DNA of 26,549 bases from an uncultured Opitutaceae bacterium (GTDB taxonomy: Bacteria > Verrucomicrobiota > Verrucomicrobiia > Opitutales > Opitutaceae), in contig CAZEJZ010000001.1 in assembly GCA_964512415.1 (NCBI GenBank), positions 1-26,549 of the forward strand. The letters are read 5' to 3'. Every line of letters starts with the position of its first letter. The stretch's first letter is position 1. Shown piece by piece: positions 2-15,588 of the stretch. The translations under genes were made by a program, and so were the position numbers. The notes below the pieces were generated by a model. The model ran no database searches, was not told where the DNA came from, and was given only the letters and a program-made list of their open reading frames with translations.

Positions 2-763
2 GGCATCAAGCCCTGCGATCCCCTCATCCCCGTCGGCGACGCCCTCACGCACGCGCCCGTCCCCACCCCGCTCCGCGACGGGCGCATGCCGGTCAACCTC
101 GCCGCGGCCCGCGCCGTGCGCCGCGAGGTGGGCGATGACTTCTGGCTCCGCGGCGCCATCTCCGGGCCGTTCTCCCTCGCGATCTCGCTCGTCGGCGCCG
201 AGGCGCTCTTCCTCGCCTGCCTCGACCGCCCCGACTGGGTACGCGAGGTCCTCGCCTACGCGAGTCGCATCATCAAGGCGTTCGCCCGCGGCTACCTCGA
301 CGCCGGCGCCGAACTCATCGTCTTCGATTCCCAAGCCTCTCCGGAACTGCTCTCCCCTCCGATGTACGAGGAGTTCGTGCTGCCCGTCACCGAGGAACTG
401 GTGCAATGGGCCGCCGGCCAGGGCGTGCGCGACCTGCCCCTCGTCATCGGCGGCAACACAACGCCGATCGCCGAGCTGCTCCTCCGCACCGGCGCGAACA
501 ACCTGCTCTGCGATTTCACCGCCGACTTCGATGAGTGGGCCGCGCTCTGCGCCCAGCACCAGCGCAGCTTCCGCCGCAATCTTTCCCCGCGGCTCCTCGA
601 AACCGCCACGCCCGACGAGATCTATGCCACCGCCCGGCGCGAGCTCGCCCGCGGCCGCTCCCTCCCCGGCTTCATCATGGGCACCGCCGTCATCCCGTTC
701 GGCACGCCCACCGCCCATATCCTCGCGGTGAAGCAGGCCTGCCTCGACTGCGCCCCAGCCTGA
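2..763 (+). CDS. Uroporphyrinogen decarboxylase / MtaA-CmuA family methyltransferase (5'-partial)
   Basis: The frame is open from position 2 (GIKPCDPLIP...DGRMPVNL), so the ATG at 86 is internal. Family-like segments: 'DGRMP', 'GAISGPFSLA', 'FDSQASPELLSPPMYEEFVLP', 'GNTTPI', 'RNLSP', 'PGFIMGT..IPFGTP..HI.A'. It lies directly upstream of a corrinoid protein. Confidence 0.85.
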   Translation, partial: GIKPCDPLIPVGDALTHAPVPTPLRDGRMPVNLAAARAVRREVGDDFWLRGAISGPFSLAISLVGAEALFLACLDRPDWVREVLAYASRIIKAFARGYLDAGAELIVFDSQASPELLSPPMYEEFVLPVTEELVQWAAGQGVRDLPLVIGGNTTPIAELLLRTGANNLLCDFTADFDEWAALCAQHQRSFRRNLSPRLLETATPDEIYATARRELARGRSLPGFIMGTAVIPFGTPTAHILAVKQACLDCAPA

Positions 764-819
764 ACCGGCTTCCGGCCACGCCCTCCCACCGCCCCCACTT
801 CCCGACCTTCGTCTTCCCC

Positions 820-1464
820 ATGCCGGACTACGCCCAGCTGAACCAGTTCCTCTACGAGGGGAACGCCAAGGAGGTCGAACGCCTCGTCCGCGAAGCCCTC
901 GCCGAGGGCCGGCCCGTCGATGAGGTGCTCAACGACGGTCTCATCGCCGGCATGGCCGTCGTGGGCGAGGACTTCAAGTACTCCGTCCTCTACGTCCCCG
1001 AGGTGCTCGTCGCCGCCCGAGCCATGAAGGCTGGCATGGCCATCCTCAAGCCGCTCCTCGTCGCCGACGCCGCCAACCACCCGCCCCGCGGGACGCTCAT
1101 CATGGGCACGGTGAAGGGCGACCTCCACGACATCGGCAAGAATCTCGTCTGCATGATGGCCGAGGGCGCCGGCTTCAAGGTCGTCGACATCGGCGTCGAC
1201 CAACCCACCGAGTCCTTCATCGCCGCCGCCCGCACGCACCAGGCCCACATCGTCGGCATGAGCGCCCTGCTCACCACCACCATGCCCTACATGAAGGTGG
1301 TGATCGACGCCTTCCAAAACGAACCCGACCTCGCCCACGTGAAGCTCGTCATCGGCGGCGCCCCCGTGAACCGCATGTTTGCCGACGAGATCGGCGCGGA
1401 CGGCTACGGTCCCGACGCCCCGAGCAGCGTGGAAATGTTCCAGCGGTTCATGGCGGCCCAGTGA
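820..1464 (+). CDS. Corrinoid (cobalamin-binding) methyl-carrier protein, MtaC/MtbC-like, 214 aa
   Basis: N-terminal cap domain (LNDGLIAGMAVVGEDFK...YVPEVLVAARAM) plus B12-binding motifs GDLHDIG (DxHxxG), SALLTTT (SxL) and IGGAP. ATG at 820; the ORF-track extension from 535 is not protein-like. Confidence 0.95.
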   Translation: MPDYAQLNQFLYEGNAKEVERLVREALAEGRPVDEVLNDGLIAGMAVVGEDFKYSVLYVPEVLVAARAMKAGMAILKPLLVADAANHPPRGTLIMGTVKGDLHDIGKNLVCMMAEGAGFKVVDIGVDQPTESFIAAARTHQAHIVGMSALLTTTMPYMKVVIDAFQNEPDLAHVKLVIGGAPVNRMFADEIGADGYGPDAPSSVEMFQRFMAAQ

Positions 1465-1539
1465 TCCCCTTTCTCGCCGTCGACTGCACCCGCGGCGGCA
1501 AAGACGCCTCCCAAATCCTGACCCCGAATCCCTTCCGAG

Positions 1540-3153
1540 ATGTCCTCCCTGCGCGACAAGCTTGAAGGTTCCGACCGCTTCCTCGTGGGCGTGGAGTTGG
1601 TCTCCACGCGGGGCACGATGGAGGAGGCGCGGGCGCAGCGGGCGGTGCGCTTCGCCCGCGACCTCGCGCGGGAACCGCGGGTCGACTGGGTCTCCGTGAC
1701 CGACAATGCCGGGGGGCATCCGATGCTCGCTCCGGCGGCGCTGGGGCGACCGATCCGCGAGGCGGGCGGCACGGTCGTGGTCCACTTGTCCTGCAAGGAT
1801 TTCAACCGCAACGGGCTGGAGTCGACCGCGTGGCAGCTGGCGAGCGAGGGTTTCCACGATGTGCTCGCCCTCACGGGCGACGCCCCGGCCCCCGGCGTGG
1901 CCGGCGGCGCGAAGCCGGTCTTCGATCTCGACTCCGTCGGTCTGCTCACGCTGCTCGAGCGGATGAACGCCGGCCTGCCGGCCCCACGACCCGGCGCGAC
2001 CGACACCGCGGCGCCGACGCGCCGGCTCACGCCCACGCACTTCTTCAGCGGGTGCGTGGTCACGAACTTCAAGCGCCACGAAAACGAGGTCGTGCCGCAA
2101 CTGCAGAAGCTCGCCGTCAAGGTCGCCGCCGGCGCCCGCTGGGTCATCAATCAGGTGGGCTACGATTCGCGCAAGATCTCCGAGCTCATCGCCTGGTCCC
2201 GCGCCCACCTGTCGACGCCGGTGCCGCTGATCGGCAACGTCTACGTGCTCAACCCGACGGTCGCGCGCCTGTTCCGCTCGCAACAGATTCCGGGCGTCGT
2301 GGTGTCCGACGAGCTCGCGGATCTCTGCGCGCGACACGAGACGACCCCCGACCGGGGCCGCGCGTTCTTTCTCGAATTCGCCGCCCGCCAGGTGTCGATC
2401 TACCGCGGCCTCGGTTACCGCGGCGTGTACCTCGGCGGTGTCCACGCGGTGGAGGATGTCCGGACCGTCCTCGATCTCGCCGAACGCCATGGGCCCGAGG
2501 ACTGGCGCAGGTTTGCCCGCGAGCAGCGCTTCTCCCGTCCGGGTGAGTTCTTCTGCTACGCCGAGGATCCGGCCACCGGACTCGCGGATCCGACGCGGCC
2601 GACTCCCGCCACCACCGCCGCGAGCGGACGCGCGTCCCTCGGGGACCGCTGGGTGTACCGGTTCTCCAAGTTCACCCACGCCGCCTTGTTCACGCCGGAC
2701 CGCGGACTGTGGACGCTCGGCGAGCGTCTGACGTCCCGCGCCAAGGATCCCGCGCAGGGTCCCCGCTGGATGCGCGCGCTGGAACACGTGGGCAAGTCCG
2801 CGCTCTTCGACTGCCGGGACTGCGGCGACTGCTCGCTGCCCGACATCGCCTTCCTGTGTCCCGAGTCCGCCTGCGCGAAGAACCAGCGCAACGGTCCGTG
2901 CGGCGGCACCCGCGACGGGCAGTGCGAGGTCGGCGACTTTCCCTGCATCTGGTCCCGCGCGTACGACCGGCTGAAGGCCGAGGGCCGCGCCGACAAGCTG
3001 CTCGCGCACGCGCCCGTGATCCAGGACCAGACCCTCCGCGGCACGTCCAGCTGGGCCAACACCTGGCAGCGCCGCGATCATCTCGCCCCTCGCCTCACCG
3101 CCCCCCCGCCGCCTGCGCCCGCGGCGTCGGCCGCCCCTCCTCTTTCCTCATGA
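1540..3153 (+). CDS. metF: Methylenetetrahydrofolate reductase MetF fused to a C-terminal MetV/MTHFR_C Cys-rich domain, 537 aa
   Basis: MetF motifs: VELVST (catalytic Glu), SVTDNAGG, VHLSC, LALTGD, VINQVGYD. The C-terminus has 8 Cys: CRDCGDC...CPESACAKNQRNGPCGG...CE...CIW, typical of MetV. Confidence 0.9.
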   Translation: MSSLRDKLEGSDRFLVGVELVSTRGTMEEARAQRAVRFARDLAREPRVDWVSVTDNAGGHPMLAPAALGRPIREAGGTVVVHLSCKDFNRNGLESTAWQLASEGFHDVLALTGDAPAPGVAGGAKPVFDLDSVGLLTLLERMNAGLPAPRPGATDTAAPTRRLTPTHFFSGCVVTNFKRHENEVVPQLQKLAVKVAAGARWVINQVGYDSRKISELIAWSRAHLSTPVPLIGNVYVLNPTVARLFRSQQIPGVVVSDELADLCARHETTPDRGRAFFLEFAARQVSIYRGLGYRGVYLGGVHAVEDVRTVLDLAERHGPEDWRRFAREQRFSRPGEFFCYAEDPATGLADPTRPTPATTAASGRASLGDRWVYRFSKFTHAALFTPDRGLWTLGERLTSRAKDPAQGPRWMRALEHVGKSALFDCRDCGDCSLPDIAFLCPESACAKNQRNGPCGGTRDGQCEVGDFPCIWSRAYDRLKAEGRADKLLAHAPVIQDQTLRGTSSWANTWQRRDHLAPRLTAPPPPAPAASAAPPLSS

Positions 3154-4088
3154 GCCTGCACATCATCGGTGAGCTGATCAACAATGCCTACGCCCGCGCG
3201 CGCCGCGCCTGGGAGGCCCGCGACGTCACCGGCTACCAGACCCTCGCCTCGCTCCAGGCCGCCGCCGGCGCCGCCGCGATCAATCTCAACCTCGACGGGA
3301 CGCAGCGCGTGCCCGTGCGCCAGGAGGAGATGATCGCGTTCCTGCCCACTGTGATCCCGGCCCTGCAGGCCGTGACCGACGTGCCGCTGAGTTTCGACAA
3401 CCCGAGCCTCGGCTACCACCGCGCCGCCATCGCCGCGTACGATCGGTCGCGCTGCCGCGGCAAGCCCATCCTCAACTCGCTCGCGGCCTCGCGCCCCGAG
3501 CTCGACGGCATGATCGCGCTCATCCGCGATCACGACCTGCGCTGCATCGTCATGGCCTCGGAGAAGTTCCTCCCCGGCGGCGGCAGCGGCCAGAGCCTCG
3601 ACGCGCGCGACAGCCACGAGACCATCGTCCGCTTCGTCGACCGTCTCGTGTCCGAGGCCAATCGCACGCTCGACGACATCATCGTCGATCCCGGCCTCGC
3701 ACCGGTCGGCGCCGACACGTACGGGCTGATCAACATCGGCCTGGACACGATGCGCCGCTGTTCCGAGGACCCGCAGCTGCGCGGGCTGCACTTCTCGGTC
3801 GGTCTCTCCAACTTCGCCTGGGGCACGCCCAAGGGCATCAAGGACGAGCTCGAACGCGCCTACCTCACTCTTGCGCAGCGCGTGGGACTCGACCACGCGC
3901 TCGCCAACGTGGAACACAACGCCACGCCGCTGCCGGACCACGATCCGCTGGTCGCGGAGCTCGCCGCGGCGCTCGAGGCCGGTCGCGCCGGCCCCGGTGA
4001 AACGACTGAAGAGGCCGGGTTCCGCCAGGCCGAGAAAGTCATGGACATCTGCAACGCGTACCTCGAACGCCAGGAAGCCGCTTCATGA
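3150..4088 (+). CDS. Pterin-binding methyltransferase, AcsE/MeTr-like (methyl-H4folate:corrinoid methyltransferase), 312 aa
   Basis: ATG at 3150 overlaps the metF stop (ATGA). Motifs IIGELIN, PLSFD, ILNS, IVDPG and GLSN correspond to the MeTr pterin-binding residues (D75, N96, D160, N199 of Moorella MeTr). Confidence 0.85.
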   Translation: MSLHIIGELINNAYARARRAWEARDVTGYQTLASLQAAAGAAAINLNLDGTQRVPVRQEEMIAFLPTVIPALQAVTDVPLSFDNPSLGYHRAAIAAYDRSRCRGKPILNSLAASRPELDGMIALIRDHDLRCIVMASEKFLPGGGSGQSLDARDSHETIVRFVDRLVSEANRTLDDIIVDPGLAPVGADTYGLINIGLDTMRRCSEDPQLRGLHFSVGLSNFAWGTPKGIKDELERAYLTLAQRVGLDHALANVEHNATPLPDHDPLVAELAAALEAGRAGPGETTEEAGFRQAEKVMDICNAYLERQEAAS

Positions 4089-5374
4089 ACCCATCCGTCT
4101 CCCGCACCCCGCTCCGTCTGCCGCTCCCGAAACGCGGCGCACCCTGCTGGCTGCGCCTCGGCACCGTCTTCGACGGCCACGAGGTCCTGACGGACGCGCA
4201 CCTCGTCTACGATGCGAAGCGGATTCTGCACGTCGGCGGGCCGCCGCCGTCCTACGTGGTCGGCGCCGACCGGACGGAGCCCGACCTACACCTTCCGCAT
4301 CACACCGCGCTGCCCGGACTGATCGATGCGCACGCGCATCTCTTCCTCGAAGGCGGCGAGTTGGACCCGGCGCGGCGCGCGACGTACCTCGGGCTGCACG
4401 ACACCGAGTTGCTCGCGCGGGCCGAGGCCCGGCTGCCGCGGTTGTTGCGGCTTGGCGTTCTCGCGGTCCGCGACGCCGGCGACCGCAATGGCGTCGGCCT
4501 CGCGCTCCAGCGTCGCGACCTCTCCAGCTCGCGCGGGGAAATGCCCTATCTCGATAGCCCCGGAGCCGCGCTGCACCACCAGAGCCGCTACGGCTCATTC
4601 ATGGGCGAGACGATCGAGAGCTTCGGCACGATCGAGCAGGCCATCGCCGCCCGCGTCGCCGCCGGGGCGCACCGGATCAAGCTCCTCGCCACCGGCATCA
4701 TCAACTTCGAGAAGGGTGCGGTCACGACCAAGCCGCAGATCTCCGTCGAGGAGCTCACGCGCGCCGTCACGGCGGCCCACTCCCTCGGGCGCGAGACCAT
4801 GATCCACTGCTCCGGCAACGACGGCGTGCAGAACTGCATCGCCGCCCGCGTCGACACGATCGAACACGGCTTCTTCATCGACCGCGACCAGCTGGCGCGG
4901 CTGCGTGATCTCGACATTGCCTGGATACCCACCTTCGCCCCGGTTCACTTCCAGTGGGAACACGGCACCGCGCTCGGCTGGAGCGAGCTCGTCCGGAGCA
5001 ATCTCCGCCGGATCCTCGATGACCACGCCGCCCGCCTCCGCGAGGCCGGCGAACTCGGCGTGCGCATCATCGCCGGCAGCGACGCCGGCTCCCACGGCGT
5101 GCCCCACGGCTACGGCTTCTTCACCGAGCTTGAGATCATGGAGGCCGCCGGCCTCTCCACCCTCCAAGTCCTGCGCTCCGCCACCGGCGCGTCCGCCGGT
5201 CGCCTCGGACTCCGCGAGGATCAGGGGCGGCTGCGCATCGGAGCCCGCTCCCGCTTCCTCCTCACCGACGCGCCCGTCCTCGAGGGCGTGCGCCATCTGC
5301 GCCAGCCCATCACCGTGGTCTTCGACCACGCCGTCTTCTCGGGCGGCGATCCGTCCGCAAAGCCCGGTCTCTAG
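4085..5374 (+). CDS. Metal-dependent amidohydrolase (Xaa-Pro dipeptidase/imidazolonepropionase-like subgroup), 429 aa
   Basis: LIDAHAH (HxH), IKLLATG (Lys), MIHCSG, TIEHG and GSDAG (Asp) form a complete binuclear-site motif set. ATGA overlap with the upstream gene. Confidence 0.9.
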   Translation: MNPSVSRTPLRLPLPKRGAPCWLRLGTVFDGHEVLTDAHLVYDAKRILHVGGPPPSYVVGADRTEPDLHLPHHTALPGLIDAHAHLFLEGGELDPARRATYLGLHDTELLARAEARLPRLLRLGVLAVRDAGDRNGVGLALQRRDLSSSRGEMPYLDSPGAALHHQSRYGSFMGETIESFGTIEQAIAARVAAGAHRIKLLATGIINFEKGAVTTKPQISVEELTRAVTAAHSLGRETMIHCSGNDGVQNCIAARVDTIEHGFFIDRDQLARLRDLDIAWIPTFAPVHFQWEHGTALGWSELVRSNLRRILDDHAARLREAGELGVRIIAGSDAGSHGVPHGYGFFTELEIMEAAGLSTLQVLRSATGASAGRLGLREDQGRLRIGARSRFLLTDAPVLEGVRHLRQPITVVFDHAVFSGGDPSAKPGL

Positions 5375-5395
5375 GCCCGCCCACGCCCGATCCCG

Positions 5396-7045
5396 ATGTC
5401 CGCGACCGTCACGCTGAATGGGCGACTGCTCACGCTCGCGCCGGGCCGTTCCGTGTTCGACGCCGGAACCGACGCCGGGATCCTCATTCCGTCATCCTGC
5501 CGCCAACAGGGACGCTGCCGGGAGTGCCTGATCGAGGTGACCGCCGGCGCCACGCTCCTCACCGCCCCCGCACCGGAGGAACGCGACCTCCGCCCCGGCT
5601 TCCGGCTGTCCTGCCGCTGCCGGCCCGCCGACGACGCCGAGGGCGCGATCGTCGCCCACACGCTGCTGCGGCCGACGCTGCGGATCGAGGACCGCGCCCT
5701 CCACCTGCCGGCGTCCACCCGCGGCCTTTCCCTCGACCCCGCCGTCCGCCGCGCGGGCGACTCCATCCTGCTCGATGGCCGCGAGATCCACCGGGGCCCC
5801 GGCCCGCTCCTAGGCGTCGCCATCGACCTCGGCACGACCACCGTCGCGCTGCGCGTGCTCGACCTCGAGACCGCCACCGTCGTCGCCGCCGCCTCGTTCG
5901 AGAATCCCCAGCGCTTCGCCGGATCCGACGTGATGGCGCGCATCCAGTACGACACCGACCACCCTGGCCGCCTGCTCCAGCGCACCCTGCTCGCTTACCT
6001 GACCCGCGTGATCAACGGGCTGCCCATCGCCGCGTCATCTATTTTTGAATACGTTATCGCGGGCAACTCCACGATGCGCGATCTGCTCTTCGGCCTCGAT
6101 GTCCGCCCGATCGGCCAGAGGCCCTACCGCTCCACCATCGAACAGGCCTGGCGCGACGGAGCCCGGCCCGACTCCAGCGTGAGCGCCCGCATCCGCGACC
6201 TCCGCCTGCCCGGTCACCCCGAGGGCCGGGTCTACGGCCTCCCGCTCGTCGGGGGCCACGTCGGGGCCGATGCGGCGGCCTGCCTCCTCGCGCTCGAGCC
6301 GCATCGGAGCGACGCGCTCGTCGCCATCATGGACATCGGGACCAACACCGAGGTGTTTCTCGGCAACCGCCACGGCCTGCTCGCCGCCTCCTGCCCCGCC
6401 GGCCCCGCCTTCGAGGGCGGCGCGATCAGCTGCGGCCTGCCCGGCGTCACCGGGGCCATCGAACGCGTGCAGATCGCCGACGACGGCACGGTCCACGCGC
6501 GCGTGATCGGTGACGCGCCCGCCGACGGCGTCTGCGGATCGGGATTGATCGACCTGCTCGGTGAACTCAGCCGCACCGGACAGATGAACGAGCGCGGACG
6601 CCTGGAATCCGGCGACGAAGCGTTCGTGGTCGACGCCGGGCGTGGGATCGCGCTGCGCGAGAGTGACATCAACGAGCTGGCGCAGGCCAAGGGCGCGAAC
6701 GTCGCCGGGCTCCAAATCGTCGCGCGCCGCGCCGGCCGCCGTCTTGCGGATCTCGACTGTTTCTACCTCGCCGGTGGCTTCGGGCGCCATATCGACCTCG
6801 CGGCCGCGCGCCGCATCGGGCTCATCCCGGACCTGCCGGACGACCGCGTGGTGGCCGTCGGCAACATCGCCATCGAGGGCGCCGCGATCGCGCTGCTCTC
6901 CGTCAGCCGGCGCCGGGAGCTGGAGGCATTGGTGGGCACCATCCAGCACGTGGAGCTCGAGACCGATCCTGGGTTCTTCGACGAGTTTGTCGCGGGCTGC
7001 CAATTCCAGCCCTTCGGCAGCTTGGAGGACGCGCCGCTCCCATGA
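5396..7045 (+). CDS. RACo/RamA-type ATP-dependent reductive activator of corrinoid proteins (N-terminal 2Fe-2S ferredoxin + ASKHA/DUF4445), 549 aa
   Basis: CRQQGRCREC...LSC 2Fe-2S motif; ASKHA motifs AIDLGTTT, GGHVGADA, DIGTNTE, AGPAFEG, GVCGSG, LAGGFG. Confidence 0.93.
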   Translation: MSATVTLNGRLLTLAPGRSVFDAGTDAGILIPSSCRQQGRCRECLIEVTAGATLLTAPAPEERDLRPGFRLSCRCRPADDAEGAIVAHTLLRPTLRIEDRALHLPASTRGLSLDPAVRRAGDSILLDGREIHRGPGPLLGVAIDLGTTTVALRVLDLETATVVAAASFENPQRFAGSDVMARIQYDTDHPGRLLQRTLLAYLTRVINGLPIAASSIFEYVIAGNSTMRDLLFGLDVRPIGQRPYRSTIEQAWRDGARPDSSVSARIRDLRLPGHPEGRVYGLPLVGGHVGADAAACLLALEPHRSDALVAIMDIGTNTEVFLGNRHGLLAASCPAGPAFEGGAISCGLPGVTGAIERVQIADDGTVHARVIGDAPADGVCGSGLIDLLGELSRTGQMNERGRLESGDEAFVVDAGRGIALRESDINELAQAKGANVAGLQIVARRAGRRLADLDCFYLAGGFGRHIDLAAARRIGLIPDLPDDRVVAVGNIAIEGAAIALLSVSRRRELEALVGTIQHVELETDPGFFDEFVAGCQFQPFGSLEDAPLP

Positions 7046-7617
7046 CCCCCGCGACCCAGCCATTCCTGTGGGAGACTCGCGCCGTACCGGACGTCACGGA
7101 CGAGGCGTTCAAGCGCTTCCTCAAGCTGCCGCCGCGGCGGGAATTCACCGGGGCGGTCGCTGAGGCCGCAGCGGAGGCGCGCGCATGGTACCTCCAGCAC
7201 GGGCGCCCGTGGGGCGCGGCGATCGCGACCGAGCCCGCGCGCTGGACCGCGGCCTGCGCCGAGCTCCGGGCGGCCCCCGCCGCCGCGCTCGTCGCCGTCG
7301 CTGCGGGCACGGAAGTCGCCGAGGAGGCCGCCGCCCGCTGGACCCGCGACGAGCCGGATCGCGCCTTCTTCCTCGATCGCTTCGCCGCCGCGGTCACGGA
7401 AGCCCTCCTCGCCGAGGCGAAGCGCGCGCTCGGGGCGACCTTCCACGACTGTCCGGGATTCTGGGACTGGCCGATCACCGGCAACCTCGACCTCCTCGCG
7501 GCCTTCACCGCCGTGGCGCCGCTGCCCGGCTCCTTGGACGTGCTCGAGTCGGGGATGCTGCGTCCGAAGACCTCCCAGCTCGCTCTCTGCGACCGCCCCG
7601 CCGTGAACCCCGCCTGA
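7042..7617 (+). CDS. Stand-alone methionine synthase activation-domain-like protein (Met_synt_B12-like), 191 aa
   Basis: Pattern 'AVAAGTEV.E...FFLDRFAAAVTEA...CPGFWDWP...LESGMLRPKTS' resembles the family's 'avTiG.e.E...ylLDa...a.Ea...SPGYgDWp...lteS.mm.P.kS'. ATGA overlap with the RACo stop. Confidence 0.7.
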   Translation: MTPATQPFLWETRAVPDVTDEAFKRFLKLPPRREFTGAVAEAAAEARAWYLQHGRPWGAAIATEPARWTAACAELRAAPAAALVAVAAGTEVAEEAAARWTRDEPDRAFFLDRFAAAVTEALLAEAKRALGATFHDCPGFWDWPITGNLDLLAAFTAVAPLPGSLDVLESGMLRPKTSQLALCDRPAVNPA

Positions 7618-8192
7618 TGTCATCGGATAACGGATACACCTTTGCCCTCCGCGCGCTGCGCCGCTGGCGCGACGAGCGGCTCACGCTGGCGCCGCGGGAG
7701 GCCGGCGGCTGGCGGGCGCGCTTTCACTTCGACGGCAGCACCTGCGGCAACGTGGCCTTCGTGCTGCACTACGACATCGAGGTCGATGCGGCCGGCGTCA
7801 TCGTCGCGCTCCGCGCGGCGGCGGCGCCGGGGGACGAGGGGCACCAAAGCCTCTGCCGCCACCGCGAGGATGCCGCCTCCCTGCGCGAGGAGCTTGCGAC
7901 GGCGGGGCCGCTGCGGGGCCGGCCGCTGGACGACGTGCTCGCGTGGCGGCCCGCGACCTCGCCGGCGGGCTGCGTCTGCACCGCGCCCGCGCGGGCCCAC
8001 AAGTGGCACGCGGCGCTGCAGACCCTCCACTTCGCCCTCCACGCGCCCGCGGCGGGCGCAACGGGCGGTCCTCGGCCGCTGGGAGTCTCCGCCATGCCAG
8101 GAGCCTCGCTGGCCCCGGCACAAGCAACCCCCGCTTCGGCGGCGCGCATCGTCCGTCCCCCTCCATCCTTCCCGCCCCCCGCTTCCCCATGA
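7617..8192 (+). CDS. Hypothetical protein with Cys/His clusters, 191 aa
   Basis: ATG at 7617 overlaps the upstream stop (TGATG); coding-like codon bias; motifs GSTCGN, HQSLCRH, GCVC...HKWH; Ala/Pro-rich tail. Confidence 0.75.
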   Translation: MSSDNGYTFALRALRRWRDERLTLAPREAGGWRARFHFDGSTCGNVAFVLHYDIEVDAAGVIVALRAAAAPGDEGHQSLCRHREDAASLREELATAGPLRGRPLDDVLAWRPATSPAGCVCTAPARAHKWHAALQTLHFALHAPAAGATGGPRPLGVSAMPGASLAPAQATPASAARIVRPPPSFPPPASP

Positions 8193-8524
8193 AGATCGAA
8201 CTCTGTCCTGCCAATCCCGCCGCCTTGGAACAGCTCCGGCCGGAGAAGAACGACCGGTCCGGCATCGGCGTCCACTACGTCGACGCGATGCTCAAACCCC
8301 TCAAGTCCGGCATCGCCCTCCCCGACGGCACGAAGTTCTCGGCCAAGCGACGGGGACTGAAGATCACCCTCGCCTGCGGCACCACCAAGGGCGAGGGACT
8401 CCTGCGCCGCCTCGCGGTCGGACCCGACCCGGTCGCCATGTTCGACGCCGCCCTCGGCGAGGCCGCGGGCAAGCTCGGCGGTCGGCTCTTCATCGCGGAC
8501 GGGCGCTGGTGCTGGGAACGCTAA
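8189..8524 (+). CDS. Hypothetical protein, 111 aa
   Basis: ATGA overlap at 8189-8192; strong G/C third-position bias; globular-looking sequence (MKIELCPANP...WCWER). Confidence 0.75.
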   Translation: MKIELCPANPAALEQLRPEKNDRSGIGVHYVDAMLKPLKSGIALPDGTKFSAKRRGLKITLACGTTKGEGLLRRLAVGPDPVAMFDAALGEAAGKLGGRLFIADGRWCWER

Positions 8525-11844: not shown

Positions 11845-11963
11845 GCCCGCCGCGGGGCCGCCCCCCCGCGGAGCTTCCGACGTCGGTAATTGACGGCCCA
11901 GCCGGCGCCGGCGGACTCTTCAGGTCCTCCCAGTAGCCCGCGGCAAGGCCGCCTCCGCGGGCT
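11845..11963. repeat. Pair of related GC-rich hairpins (REP-like) between the SDR and SGNH genes
   Basis: CCGCGGGG/CCCCGCGG stem at 11850-11871 and AGCCCGCGG/CCGCGGGCT stem at 11935-11963; both units read GCCCGC-N5-GGCCGCC-(N)-CCGCGG-(A)GCTT. Confidence 0.35.
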
Positions 11964-12020
11964 TGCTTGCCCTCGCACCGCCGTCGAACCATCGCTGCAC
12001 TCCACCCGCTCTCGTCCACC

Positions 12021-13001
12021 ATGCGCCGTCGCTCCTTTCTTCCACGTCTCGCCCTCAGCGTTGTCCTCGGTCTCGCCCCCGCGCTGCCGAGCTTCGCCGC
12101 GTCCACCCCGGCAACCGCCCCGCTCCCGCACCGCACGCTCATCCTCGGGGACAGCATCACCCAGGACGGTCGGTACGTTTCCTTCCTCGAGTACTACCTG
12201 CATCGTAGCGCTCTTTCCGATACGTGGGACGTGATCAGCATCGGCCTGAGCGGCGAGACGGTATCGGGGCTCTCAGAGGCGGGCCATCCGTCGCCCCGGC
12301 CCTGCGTGCTCGACCGCCTCGACGCCGCGCTGGCGGCGGTCCGGCCGACCCGCGTGCTCGCCTGCTACGGGATGAACGATGGGGTCTACCATCCCTCCTC
12401 GCCGGAGCGGCGCGCCGCTTACGTCCGCGGGCTGACCACCCTGCGCGATCGCGTGCGGGCGGCCGGTGCCACGCTCGTCCTGATCACGCCGCCGATCTTC
12501 GACCCCCTGCCGATCACGGACCGACTCGCCAAGCCCGACGCGACCAGCTTCGGCTACCGGACTCCATTCGCCGGGTACGACGGCGTGCTGACCGAGTTTG
12601 CGGATGAGGCCCTGCGGCTGCGGGCTCCGGGCGTCGACGTGATCGATCTCCACCGCGAAATGCTCGCCGCGCTCGCCGAGCGGCGTCGCACCGATCCCGC
12701 GTTCTCCTTCAGCGCCGACGGAGTCCATCCGGGCGGGCTCGGCCATCTCATCATGGCGCGGGCCATCGCCCAGGGTCTCGGGCTGAATCTCCCCTCCGCA
12801 GCGGCCGAGAATGAACTGCGGCGCATCGAGGCAGATCCCCGCTTCAAGCTCATCCACCAGCGCCGCGCTCTTCGCTCGGAGGCGTGGCTGCCGTTCGTCG
12901 GCTACTTCCGCGACCGCAGCTTCAAGTCGCCCTCCGTGAACGCGGCCGAGGCCGTCGTGGCCCGCCTGCACGCCGACCTCAAACGACTCGGCCAACCCTA
13001 G
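12021..13001 (+). CDS. SGNH/GDSL hydrolase (esterase) with a Tat-like signal, 326 aa
   Basis: Blocks LGDSIT (Ser), SGET (Gly), GMND (Asn), DGVH (DxxH); N-terminus MRRRSFL + hydrophobic region + AxA-like site. Confidence 0.9.
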   Translation: MRRRSFLPRLALSVVLGLAPALPSFAASTPATAPLPHRTLILGDSITQDGRYVSFLEYYLHRSALSDTWDVISIGLSGETVSGLSEAGHPSPRPCVLDRLDAALAAVRPTRVLACYGMNDGVYHPSSPERRAAYVRGLTTLRDRVRAAGATLVLITPPIFDPLPITDRLAKPDATSFGYRTPFAGYDGVLTEFADEALRLRAPGVDVIDLHREMLAALAERRRTDPAFSFSADGVHPGGLGHLIMARAIAQGLGLNLPSAAAENELRRIEADPRFKLIHQRRALRSEAWLPFVGYFRDRSFKSPSVNAAEAVVARLHADLKRLGQP

Positions 13002-13413
13002 GGTTCCGCATCGTCGCGGACGCTGCGCACCCGAGTTCCGGATCGTGGCGCGGCCCCGCGCCGGGTTCGCCTGGTACGAACCGGTGGAATTCCGGCTCGG
13101 CGAGGAGGCCGCCGACCGATTCGTCGTCCCCCACAGTACCTGGTGCATCGATGGCAGGTTGTTCCACCGCGTGGATCGACCGACCGCGCGCTGCAAACCC
13201 GCGTCGGCCGGACCTCGCGACTTCCGCAGGCAGCAGCCCGAGGGCACGGCCGGGCCCCGAGGCGCTCCCGGGTTGACCCGCGAGACCGGGAACGAGACAG
13301 TCCGACCGCGCCCGCAACCCGGCTTCGGTTTCCGCATCGGAACCGGTGGCCGCGAGCGTTCTCCGTCGCACCACCGTCCGGCCTTCTCCCCAAGCCGCCC
13401 CCGCACCCGCCCC

Positions 13414-15588
13414 ATGACCCTCCGCTGCGTCGTCGCCTTCATGCTGTCCGCGCTTCCCCTGACCCTCGCCGCGCAGTCCCCGCGAGTGCTTCCGGAGGGA
13501 ACCCGGCCCGCGGATGCGCGGCTCGCCGCGCCGAAGGACCTCGACGGCTACTTCCCCTTCGCGCCGCCCACGACGCGCGCCGCGTGGGAGGCGCGGGCCG
13601 ATGCCGTCCGCCGCCGCATCCTGGTCTCCCAGGGTCTGTGGCCGATGCCCACCCGCGCGCCGCTCAACGCGGTGATCCACGGACGCATCGAGCGCGAGGA
13701 TTACACGATCGAGAAAGTCTACTTCGAGAGCGCGCCGGGCTTCTTCGTCACGGGCAACCTCTACCGTCCGCGCGCGCCGAAGGGCCGCGTGCCCGTGGTG
13801 CTGTTTGCCCACGGTCACTGGAAGGACGCGCGTCTCTCGTTCGAGACCGACGCGAAGCTGCGCGTGGAAATTGCCTCCGGGCAGGAACGCTTCGAGCAAG
13901 GGGGCCGGAGCCGGTTCCAATCCCTGTGCGTGCAGCTGGCCCGCATGGGCTGCGTGGTCTGGCAGTGGGACATGCTGAGTGACTCCGACTCGATCCAGTT
14001 CTCGGCTGACGTGATTCACCTGTTCAAGCATCAGCGACCGGAGATGAACGCCCCGACCAGCTGGGGCCTTTTTTCGCCGCAGGCCGAGGCTCGGCTCCAG
14101 AGCGTGATGGGCCTGCAGACGTGGAATGCGATCCGCTCGCTCGACTTCGTGCTCACGCTGCCGGAGGTCGACCCGGCGCGCGTCGCGATCACCGGCGCGA
14201 GTGGCGGCGGCACGCAGACGATGCTGCTGTCCGCGATCGATCCCCGCGTCGCACTCTCGTTCCCCGCCGTCATGGTGAGCACCGCGATGCAGGGCGGGTG
14301 CACCTGCGAGAACGCCTCGCTCCTCCGCGTCGGCACGGGGAACGTCGAGTTCGCCGCACTCTTCGCGCCGAAGCCGCAGGGGATGACGACGGCGAACGAC
14401 TGGACGATCGAGATGGCGAAGAAGGGATTCCCGGAACTCCGCCAGCTCTACGGCCTGCTCGGCGCGCCGGACGCCGTCATGCTCCACCGCGGCGAGCACT
14501 TCCCCCACAACTACAACGCCGTCTCGCGCTCCGCGTTCTACACGTGGCTGAACCGCCACTTCGGGCTCGGGTTCACCGAGCCCGTCATCGAACGCGACTA
14601 CGAGCCACTCACCCGCGAGCAACTGACCGTGTGGGGCGAGGAGCATCCGGCGCCGAAGGCCGCCGACCCGGATTTCGAGCGTCGGCTCCTGCGTTGGTTC
14701 GCGGACGACGCCGATGGCCAGCTCCGCTCCCTGCTCTCGCGGCCGGACCGCTTCCGCGAAGTGACAGGCCCCGCGGTGGAAGTGATGGTCGGCCGCACCC
14801 CGGCGGAGACTGGAGACGTCGTCTGGAATCCAAAGACCTCCCGTGACACGGCGGGTCACCGCGAAGCGATCGGCCTCGTGCGCAACCTCACCCACGGCGA
14901 AGAACTGCCGGTGATCTGGCTGCGGCCGAAGGCCGCGACGCCGGTCCGCCGCACCGTGGTTTGGCTCGACGACGCCGGCAAGGCTTCGCTCTACGCCGCC
15001 GATGGCAGGCTGCTCCCAGCGGTGCAGCGACTCCTCGAAGCCGGCTGCGCGGTGATCGGCGCCGACCTTCTCTGGCAGGGCGAATTCCTAGCCGCTGGAG
15101 AAACCTTCACGCAGACCCCGAAGGTGGCGAGTCCCCGGGAGTTCGCGGGCTACACCTTTGGCTACAACGCCTCGGTCGCGGCGCAGCGGACGCACGACCT
15201 CTTCACGCTTCTGGCCGCGGCCCGCCGCGAAGGCCAACCGGTCGACGTGGCCGCCTTCGGCTCACTCGCGCCGGTCGCGGCGGCCGCCCGGGCGCTGGCG
15301 GGAGCACAGATCGCCCGCGCCGCCCTCTCGACCGGGGGCTTCCGCTTCGCCCAGCTGCGCGACTTCCGCGATCCCCGTTTCCTGCCCGGCGGGGCGAAGT
15401 ACCTCGATCTCCCGGGACTACTCGCGCTCGCGGTCCCGCAACCCCTCTGGCTCGCCGGAGAGGGCAGCGGCCCGCTGCTCATCGGCGACGTGTACCGCCT
15501 CTCGGAAAACCCGCGCCAGTTGCAGGTTTTCCGCGGCGCGGCCGGCGAAGAGGCCCTGGCGGCGGCGGAATGGCTGGCGGCGCCGTAG
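13414..15588 (+). CDS. Secreted alpha/beta-hydrolase (acetyl xylan esterase/dienelactone hydrolase-like), 724 aa
   Basis: Signal peptide MTLRCVVAFMLSALPLTLAA; YTIEKVYFES.PG.FVTGNLYRP; nucleophile elbow TGASGGG (Ser at 14200); GGCTCEN; a second degenerate alpha/beta domain at the C-terminus. Confidence 0.85.
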   Translation: MTLRCVVAFMLSALPLTLAAQSPRVLPEGTRPADARLAAPKDLDGYFPFAPPTTRAAWEARADAVRRRILVSQGLWPMPTRAPLNAVIHGRIEREDYTIEKVYFESAPGFFVTGNLYRPRAPKGRVPVVLFAHGHWKDARLSFETDAKLRVEIASGQERFEQGGRSRFQSLCVQLARMGCVVWQWDMLSDSDSIQFSADVIHLFKHQRPEMNAPTSWGLFSPQAEARLQSVMGLQTWNAIRSLDFVLTLPEVDPARVAITGASGGGTQTMLLSAIDPRVALSFPAVMVSTAMQGGCTCENASLLRVGTGNVEFAALFAPKPQGMTTANDWTIEMAKKGFPELRQLYGLLGAPDAVMLHRGEHFPHNYNAVSRSAFYTWLNRHFGLGFTEPVIERDYEPLTREQLTVWGEEHPAPKAADPDFERRLLRWFADDADGQLRSLLSRPDRFREVTGPAVEVMVGRTPAETGDVVWNPKTSRDTAGHREAIGLVRNLTHGEELPVIWLRPKAATPVRRTVVWLDDAGKASLYAADGRLLPAVQRLLEAGCAVIGADLLWQGEFLAAGETFTQTPKVASPREFAGYTFGYNASVAAQRTHDLFTLLAAARREGQPVDVAAFGSLAPVAAAARALAGAQIARAALSTGGFRFAQLRDFRDPRFLPGGAKYLDLPGLLALAVPQPLWLAGEGSGPLLIGDVYRLSENPRQLQVFRGAAGEEALAAAEWLAAP

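Follow-up and report, generated by a model that had tools for sequence, protein, structure and literature searches.

The nine-gene cluster at the start of contig CAZEJZ010000001.1 from an uncultured freshwater Opitutaceae bacterium probably encodes an inducible, self-contained, four-component corrinoid-dependent demethylase for substrates of the type X-O-CH3 with its own oxidation of methyl-tetrahydrofolate (CH3-H4folate), and we give this reading a probability of about 0.68. The window, by which we mean the whole stretch of DNA analysed (26,549 nucleotides), is the whole 26.5-kb contig of a 743-contig Opitutaceae metagenome-assembled genome (MAG) that is 88% complete and is called G000 here. 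We infer the direction of methyl flow and the role of every protein from sequence and context. Corrinoid demethylases are well known from acetogens, from methanogens and from some few methylotrophs, and Opitutaceae are known as polysaccharide degraders; the design of the system is already known, and its enzyme set, host lineage and substrate are uncharacterised. Nine open reading frames (ORFs) on the same strand span positions 2-8524 of the window:

g1, 2-763, + strand: URO-D/MtaA-CmuA-superfamily methyltransferase, the proposed substrate:corrinoid methyltransferase I (MT I); truncated at the 5' side by the border of the contig
g2, 823-1464, + strand: corrinoid (cobalamin) carrier with B12-binding_2 and B12-binding domains and a DxHxxG His-on motif
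g3, 1540-3153, + strand: fused MetF-MetV (MetFV) methylene-H4folate reductase of 537 aa (MTHFR and DUF5981), proposed to oxidise CH3-H4folate
g4, 3150-4088, + strand: Pterin_bind protein, a MeTr-like methyl-corrinoid:H4folate methyltransferase (MT II)
g5, 4085-5374, + strand: Amidohydro_1 protein, a binuclear-metal amidohydrolase of the prolidase/carboxypeptidase/ochratoxinase-like clade, putative folate-branch accessory
g6, 5396-7045, + strand: RACo-type ATP-dependent reductive activase (Fer2, Raco_middle and RACo_C_ter) with an N-terminal 2Fe-2S ferredoxin domain
g7, 7042-7617, + strand: stand-alone homologue of the reactivation (S-adenosylmethionine-binding) domain of MetH, with a profile match to PDB 1J6R
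g8, 7617-8192, + strand: conserved core of ~140 residues with four invariant Cys and His, followed by a variable Ala/Pro tail
g9, 8189-8524, + strand: alpha/beta protein of 111 aa, always after g8

In the proposed mechanism, g1 would demethylate an O-methyl substrate and load the methyl group onto the Co(I) of g2, g4 would transfer it from CH3-Co(III)-g2 to H4folate, and the fused reductase g3 would oxidise the resulting CH3-H4folate to CH2-H4folate for one-carbon (C1) assimilation or oxidation. The activase g6 would use ATP to re-reduce accidentally oxidised Co(II), with g7, the Cys4/His protein g8 and g9 as its likely assistants, and g5 would serve the folate branch. The operon would be switched on by a divergent AraC/cupin regulator, which the relatives carry and which is missing here because the contig breaks off.

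An earlier note, made from the sequence of this DNA, had described nine co-oriented genes with five overlapping junctions, and these overlaps can be read directly from the sequence (ATGA at 3150, 4085, 7042 and 8189, TGATG at 7617). Its assignments of all nine genes held when we assigned domains by Pfam and NCBIfam scans of the window proteins, and the scans also agree with its statement that acsB, acsC, acsD and a homocysteine-binding domain are missing, as none of these was found in the window, be it in the cluster or in the remainder; MtaB was likewise not found in the window. None of the nine cluster proteins reached an NCBIfam equivalog cut-off, and the similarity to the chloromethane (cmu) system is at superfamily level only, in line with the note, which had recognised no characterised system. 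In the whole genome G000, g1 is the sole URO-D protein other than HemE and g6 is the sole RACo, and therefore the cassette is self-contained in this genome, as the note had proposed; the route CH3-X <-> CH3-Co <-> CH3-H4folate <-> CH2-H4folate that it had drawn is supported by the component content. The missing 5' end of g1 (~98 codons) was not found elsewhere in the 743-contig assembly, and no Rfam match, to a B12 riboswitch or another RNA, was obtained in the window or in two relatives.

The gene order is conserved far beyond chance. For comparison, we fetched 80 related loci with a g1 profile (L labels; genomes carry G labels), and in 23 of them, from Opitutaceae, at least eight of the nine genes are collinear ("type A"), which means that the set described in the earlier note is co-conserved. 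The cluster is present in 11 of 13 congeneric genomes, the closest loci (labelled Opitutaceae MAG) have a g1 that is 94-100% identical, and the median identity across the collinear loci ranges from 83% (g2) down to 44% (g7). Upstream of g1, relatives carry a divergently transcribed AraC/cupin regulator, with a divergent AraC gene in 20 of the 23 collinear loci, and no homocysteine domain was found upstream of the operon in any of the 23; the split methionine synthase that the earlier note had considered is thus not what lies upstream. MttB was not found in the operon or, in the relatives, in its upstream flank, which are the regions that this search covered. RACo occurred in all nine tested genomes with a g1 homologue, versus one of 14 control genomes. 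Cultured candidate carriers are Geminisphaera colitermitum TAV2, the Opitutaceae strains D2-102 and MBA3-11 and Opitutales bacterium ASA1, the last of which has a g9 homologue. Opitutus sp. WM.026 has a core-MetE-like gene and a gene for an AP_endonuc_2 TIM barrel upstream of the operon (L115:7075-8997), and downstream of it follow a second AraC gene and a pair encoding a 452-aa URO-D protein and a corrinoid protein (L115:19682-21053); AP_endonuc_2 genes also lie beside AraC-g1 in L112 and L116.

The URO-D assignment of g1 is clear in Pfam (2e-29, and 2e-36 for a full-length orthologue), and in relatives the protein has 350-353 aa and its gene opens the operon. On TIGR01463 (mtaA_cmuA), this orthologue reaches 105 bits, which is below the cut-off, versus 37 bits on hemE, and the best PDB match of g1 is MtaA (4AY7). 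In the alignment to 4AY7, the zinc ligands of MtaA (HxC and a C-terminal Cys) read V-I-G and T in g1, the same positions read L-x-I-G-G-N and M-G-T-A-V in eight g1 orthologues, and CmuA, unlike g1, retains the HxC...C ligands. The HxC...C zinc site of MtaA and CmuA is known to activate thiol acceptors, and since g1 lacks these ligands, a thiol appears unlikely as its methyl acceptor. In our tree, which contained no OdmB, VdmB, MtoB or CdmB sequences, the g1 clade was supported 100/100 and was separate from CmuA, CmuC, HemE and the URO-D proteins of a sister cassette, type B, described below; CdmB was absent among the PDB sequence matches of g1. The carrier needs two half-reactions; g4 would cover the folate side, and for the other side g1 is the sole candidate.

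The carrier g2 has the motif D-L-H-D-I-G in its translation and shares 34% identity with the CmuA corrinoid domain; its best NCBIfam matches are of the MtgC type, well below threshold (NF047996, 185.6 bits, cut-off 370). The fused reductase g3 comes after g1 in 46 of the 80 loci and has no PDB sequence match at E <= 0.001, and a canonical MetF (300 bits) is encoded elsewhere in G000, on contig C5. g4 scores 91 bits on PRK07535, below the cut-off, and matches MeTr/AcsE and the folate domain of MetH in the PDB, the PDB relatives of g5 are 2P9B, 2QS8, Cc2672 and the LlADH amide hydrolases, and the RACo domains of g6 reach 227 bits.

For g7, g8 and g9, no Pfam or NCBIfam match was obtained. The label "MetH-activation-like" that the earlier note had given to g7 stands, since its profile matches PDB 1J6R, the MetH activation-domain homologue of Thermotoga maritima, with E = 9e-6, and its protein-atlas neighbours carry PF02965; a literature search for stand-alone activation domains found nothing relevant. 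In G021, L127 and L128, g7 is fused in frame to g8, and the two therefore belong together; g7 is also retained beside g1-MetFV in variants without a corrinoid gene in the operon. An alignment of g8 (A2) shows the invariant elements TCxN, C80, GCxC and HKW...H, and an alignment of g9 (A4) has a mean column identity of 74%. The AlphaFold2 models of g8 (pLDDT 69) and g9 (pLDDT 81.5) gave no significant Foldseek match and no fold match, respectively, in the PDB, with best TM-scores of ~0.25, and each of the 7089 members of the g9 family at E <= 1e-5 is named "hypothetical". As the block of corrinoid protein (CoP), RACo, g7, g8 and g9 is constant, g7-g9 would be helpers of the carrier and the activase.

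The cluster is not the housekeeping methionine synthase. A C-terminal part of MetH of ~835 aa was found in G000, and a ~365-aa ORF with the homocysteine domain (PF02574) is present in every one of the 13 congeners, also in the two that have no such cluster; the homocysteine domain was not found in G000, which is an 88%-complete genome. MetH appears to be split in this family, with the ~365-aa ORF representing the homocysteine domain only and a separate ORF the remainder, which corresponds to the ~835-aa open frame in G000 and to an ORF of ~905-918 aa in each of three further Opitutaceae genomes, and MetH ORFs in other families of the order have 1210-1330 aa. The coordinates of the split MetH are C428:2317-2538 in G000 and, as an example from the congeners, G007:C4:205285-206208.

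While the earlier note had proposed demethylation or a reverse methylation alike, the comparative data favour the demethylating direction. Dedicated MetF paralogues oxidise CH3-H4folate in other organisms, namely the essential metF2 of the cmu system (PMC4949252), the dedicated MetF of SYK-6 (PMC11868366) and the paralogue of Ruegeria (PMC12478193), which argues for the same use of g3. The direction is further suggested by the AraC-type, that is, catabolic-type control of the operon, by the existence of a separate housekeeping MetF and MetH, and by the replacement of the corrinoid relay by a one-way DesA/LigM demethylase in syntenic operons.

Some points weigh against the demethylase reading. 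The sequence would by itself not fix the direction of transfer, and enzymes of the MeTr type can run both ways. A 47%-identical g1 homologue of Kryptoniota and Bacteroidota takes the place of MtaA next to MtaB and a CoP, so that an acceptor-side (MT II) role would fit. The persistence of g1 in DesA/LigM operons without a corrinoid gene means that there it would have to work in trans or otherwise, and the aryl-ether and sugar lines of evidence on the substrate point different ways.

The exchange of the relay is seen in 12 syntenic Opitutaceae loci with the order AraC, g1, MetFV, X and a g7-like gene, in which X is a 450-aa H4folate-dependent aryl O-demethylase of the DesA/LigM family that replaces the corrinoid relay (567 bits on the DesA model, 525 bits on the LigM model, E = 1e-130 to LigM structures). 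In another genome, the same chromosomal context has a g5-type amidohydrolase at position X, and a g4 orthologue (67% identical) lies elsewhere in this genome; no g4 orthologue was found in the DesA/LigM-variant genomes. All of these genomes hold one RACo each, and in four of them (three DesA/LigM variants and the one with the amidohydrolase at X) we mapped it inside an island; a g2-like CoP (45-49% identical) is located in the island of three of five DesA/LigM-variant genomes. The islands (L117, L118, L119 and L121) contain several strongly diverged paralogues of the URO-D type (some eight in a ~20-kb stretch that was mapped in full), together with RACo, one corrinoid protein and a homocysteine methyltransferase (PF02574). 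One genome (L122) has a second MetFV-MeTr pair next to the island, and in three genomes a distant MeTr homologue is encoded on the RACo contig.

Type B, the sister cassette, was found at L128:5925-15199, L127:6117-13423 and L022:16255-19567 with L028:2568-5606. In L128, the order is RACo, g7-g8 fusion, g9, URO-D, CoP, MetFV, Pterin_bind and Amidohydro_1, and the proteins are 30-69% identical to g2-g9 of the window, whereas the URO-D protein belongs to another clade and is ~21% identical to g1. As the backbone is shared and the URO-D protein differs, the latter would be an exchangeable, substrate-specific module. In two of the three type-B genomes (G021 and L127), a PF02574 homocysteine methyltransferase replaces MetFV, MeTr and the amidohydrolase, which suggests that H4folate and homocysteine are alternative methyl sinks. 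At L127, where an alcohol dehydrogenase and the homocysteine methyltransferase stand in place of the folate branch, a 51-codon remnant of a MetFV N-terminus (L127:11471-11626, 47% identical to g3 residues 1-55) looks like the footprint of a module exchange.

These variants also bear on g5, which accompanies the orthologues of MetFV and MeTr in type A, the type-B locus L128 and L087/L089/L090, and is missing from the homocysteine-type and DesA/LigM-type variants. As the g4 orthologue is absent in the DesA/LigM genomes and present in the g5-bearing one, g5 is seen as a companion of the MetFV-MeTr folate branch, and it tracks this branch and not the URO-D type. This weakens the idea that the amidohydrolase points to the substrate or unmasks it.

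Relatives of g1 also occur alone. Such solitary genes are 72-80% identical to g1 and are not separated from the operon copies in the tree, and their genomes all have RACo and corrinoid proteins elsewhere, with corrinoid proteins found in all four genomes that we checked for them. They lie behind an SSF importer in nine loci, in front of a cytoplasmic GH51 and a ~770-aa protein, behind GH2 in Geminisphaera colitermitum TAV2 and in front of GH42 in Latescibacterota, and GH78 genes are near them as well; like GH51, the GH2 and GH42 enzymes are cytoplasmic. In Kryptoniota and Bacteroidota, the 47%-identical g1 precedes a CoP, MtaB (430 bits to the MtaB family), the ~770-aa protein and an archaeal-type core-MetE methionine synthase in a TonB-receptor locus (L123:10001-16685 and L124:10001-16672), which looks like a route from methanol or methyl ethers to methionine in glycan degraders; MtaB also accompanies a g1 homologue in Methylacidiphilales. 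The ~770-aa protein (cluster c13) lies beside g1 homologues in 11 loci, after GH51 in Opitutaceae and after MtaB in Bacteroidota and Kryptoniota (e.g., L112:12590-14893, L123:13234-15567 and L124:13222-15555), and its Opitutaceae versions are cytoplasmic, those of the other phyla having an N-terminus that is signal-like. For c13 and another recurrent neighbour, c19 (~800 aa), no Pfam, NCBIfam or PDB sequence match was found beyond a weak GH63-like trace.

We infer that the window's own cassette acts on an O-methyl compound from plants or algae. That DesA/LigM stands in for the relay while the regulator is orthologous suggests an aryl methyl ether, such as vanillate-, syringate- or ferulate-like compounds that are perhaps freed from glycosides or hemicellulose esters, and this is our tentative first choice at somewhat less than even odds. 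Glycosidase and SSF neighbours, loci in other phyla that resemble polysaccharide utilization loci, and the sugar-acid context of type B point instead to a carbohydrate; an O-methylated sugar is a somewhat less likely substrate, and anything else is about as likely as a sugar. Both lines of evidence could be reconciled by methoxylated phenolics (ferulate, sinapate, flavonoid or lignan glycosides) that are imported as glycosides or as esters of hemicellulose.

Type B is a candidate 4-O-methyl-glucuronate demethylase, as it lies directly behind LacI-ThuA-UxuA in three independent genomes, and its neighbours encode GH43, GH10, GH35-like, GH67 or GH115 alpha-glucuronidases, CE15 glucuronoyl esterase and TonB receptors. 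We downgraded 4-O-methyl-glucuronate as the substrate of the window's own cassette because this context belongs to type B with its different URO-D enzyme. That g1 founds a zinc-site-less URO-D clade cleaving the alkyl methyl ethers of glycosidase-released cytoplasmic sugars, with type B as the missing 4-O-methyl-glucuronate demethylase, is a further reading that we consider rather unlikely. The literature search found no paper on this Opitutaceae operon or on 4-O-methyl-glucuronate demethylation. Further downstream of the operon in the window, positions 11937-13001 encode a GDSL esterase (family match 7e-14), and an 882-aa ORF at 12940-15588, after the GDSL esterase and an epimerase, has weak sub-threshold matches to AXE1 (acetyl-xylan-esterase) and fungal CE15 (glucuronoyl-esterase), so that a link of this region to hemicellulose or lignin-carbohydrate esters is possible.

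Other functions of the cluster have to be weighed against a demethylase. It could be a methyl-transfer hub that mainly makes methionine, like MtgCDE or an alternative methionine synthase, in which CH2-H4folate would be converted by g3 to CH3-H4folate and by g4 to CH3-Co-g2, and the methyl group would be passed to homocysteine by g1 or by the separately encoded homocysteine-domain protein of the split MetH. Such a design is proven in Ruegeria and Phaeobacter (PMC12478193), and the MtgC-type family matches of g2, the homology of g7 to the MetH reactivation domain, the PF02574 proteins in place of MetFV-MeTr in the sister cassettes of G021 and L127, the core-MetE-like genes near g1 in L115, L123 and L124 and the missing homocysteine domain in the 88%-complete G000 are all in line with it. 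However, none of the 23 loci has a homocysteine-binding domain in the operon or upstream, g1 lacks the zinc-thiolate site that is common to MetH, MetE, BHMT and MtaA, the homocysteine-domain ORF is found in 13 of 13 congeners, G000 itself has the ~835-aa C-part of MetH and a canonical MetF, and AraC control and the DesA/LigM exchange fit catabolism. We consider a methionine hub improbable, and the upstream region and the separate MetF and MetH led us to reject a split or alternative methionine synthase as the main function of the cluster. A reverse, biosynthetic flow, in which g1 would place a CH2-H4folate-derived methyl group onto a non-thiol acceptor (a metabolite, a metalloid or a cell-envelope sugar), is a quite improbable alternative: the MeTr and MetF reactions are reversible and g1 occupies the acceptor-side position of MtaA beside MtaB-CoP in three other phyla, but methyl-Co(III) needs a strong nucleophile and the context suggests none, the regulator is of the catabolic type, a unidirectional DesA/LigM-family demethylase substitutes for the relay in syntenic operons, and the second, housekeeping MetF makes a dedicated reductase unnecessary.

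The enzyme g1 could also act on a smaller donor, by dehalogenating CH3Cl or CH3Br or by taking another C1 methyl group, such as that of methanol or a methyl-sulfur compound. The logic of CmuA, CmuB and MetF2 is the same, cmu clusters carry a hutI-like amidohydrolase, a paaE Fe-S reductase and a small Cys-rich fmdB, whose deletion costs 25-47% fitness (PMC4949252), and a zinc-free MT I of the URO-D fold for chloromethane exists in CdmB (PMC13222342). Against these parallels stand the lack of orthology, with g2 as the only match (34% to the corrinoid domain of CmuA), and the AraC/cupin control, SSF importer and glycosidase neighbours, which point to a larger, imported organic substrate and make a cmu-like use very unlikely. 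Finally, g1 might not be a methyltransferase at all, and instead a cofactor-less, HemE-like decarboxylase acting on an aromatic or sugar acid, with another protein, for example g8/g9 or g5, as MT I. The lack of a recognisable metal site in g1 and its occurrence beside DesA/LigM or alone by glycosidases, where no corrinoid gene is adjacent, would agree with such a role. Yet the MtaA/CmuA model scores g1 three times higher than the HemE model does, g1 stands immediately before the corrinoid gene both in type A and in Bacteroidota and Kryptoniota, the otherwise rare RACo is found in 9/9 tested g1 genomes, and another URO-D protein fills the same slot in the sister cassette; a decarboxylase is therefore a very remote prospect.

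Among known systems, the four-component phenyl-methyl-ether O-demethylases (Odm and Vdm of Acetobacterium dehalogenans, those of Desulfitobacterium hafniense and the archaeal MtoABCD) have the same parts, that is, an MT I of the URO-D superfamily, a small corrinoid protein, an MT II and a RACo-type activase, and the methyl group ends on H4folate. OdmB and VdmB belong to the UroD superfamily (PMC10418091), and g1 is likened to them by component type, not by sequence comparison. The host differs, as it is a non-acetogenic, polysaccharide-degrading member of the Verrucomicrobiota whose relatives have oxidases, and so does the operon with its fused MetF-MetV, amidohydrolase, g7-g9 and AraC control. 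In the LigM/DesA and MetF (S6MTHFR) pathway of Sphingobium lignivorans SYK-6, the demethylase likewise makes CH3-H4folate, which a dedicated MTHFR oxidises (PMC11868366), but LigM and DesA work without cobalamin, a gene of their kind is absent from the window, and g3 is a MetF-MetV fusion.

The operon is not orthologous to cmu, MtaABC or MtgBCDE. The cmu system of Methylorubrum extorquens CM4 and Hyphomicrobium uses the same route from MT I via a corrinoid to H4folate and a dedicated MetF2, and it likewise has an accessory amidohydrolase, a notable parallel, and Fe-S/Cys-rich proteins (PMC4949252). CmuA, however, is a methyltransferase-corrinoid fusion with HxC...C, whereas the window has two ORFs and no such site, and CmuB has an MtrH-like annotation (tetrahydromethanopterin S-methyltransferase subunit H), whereas g4 is a Pterin_bind protein. 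The comparison with pCMU01 showed superfamily-level similarity only, and cmu orthology was rejected: g1 aligned to the CmuA N-terminus with 90% hhalign probability and 23% identity, g5 matched the cmu amidohydrolase only in a 14-residue HxH stretch, tblastn of g3, g4 and g5 against the cmu region gave no match at E <= 0.01, and no RACo was found in the cmu cluster of this plasmid. The MtgBCDE/RamA/MetF2 hub of Ruegeria pomeroyi and Phaeobacter inhibens is also a corrinoid relay in an oxygen-exposed heterotroph, and it shares with our operon a stand-alone corrinoid protein, a bidirectional pterin-binding methyltransferase, an activase (of the RamA type there) and a CH3-H4folate-oxidising MetF paralogue (PMC12478193); its donor enzyme, however, is the MttB-family MtgB for glycine betaine and not a URO-D protein like g1, it contains the homocysteine-binding MtgE, which has no counterpart in our operon, and its accessory protein is DUF1638 instead of g7-g9. 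Type 1 mlp clusters (Kountz and Balskus, PMC10418091) and the MtaABC system of methanogens also combine an MtaA-like URO-D protein with a corrinoid protein and a RACE/RACo activase. The mlp clusters encode two or three Mlps, with at least an Mlp2 and an Mlp3 paralogue, and lack an H4folate methyltransferase, they occur in strict anaerobes, and methyl-S/Se substrates were proposed for them (PMC10418091), whereas the window has one URO-D protein without the zinc site, a MeTr and a MetFV. In MtaABC, the methyl donor enzyme is MtaB, and MtaA has a Zn(His,Cys,Cys) site with ligands that g1 lacks. The methyl branch of acetyl-CoA synthase and the corrinoid iron-sulfur protein has acsB, acsC and acsD by its MeTr, and these are not in the window.

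In conclusion, a complete demethylase with folate oxidation and a repair set would be a conserved, regulated operon of freshwater and soil Opitutaceae, and it defines three accessory proteins, g7-g9, and a folate-branch-linked amidohydrolase in B12 enzymology. The same backbone with swapped URO-D enzymes represents a clean natural experiment. If the g1 clade and type B act on sugars, they would be the first B12-dependent sugar O-demethylases, which would explain an oxygenase-free use of methylated hemicellulose, pectin and algal sugars by the Planctomycetota-Verrucomicrobiota-Chlamydiota (PVC) group, Bacteroidota and Kryptoniota, and action of either the operon or type B on methylated sugars would fill a gap in hemicellulose and pectin catabolism. 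If lignin-derived or glycoside-bound methoxy-aromatics are demethylated, the operon would constitute a widespread, overlooked sink of methoxyl carbon in humic lakes and rivers.

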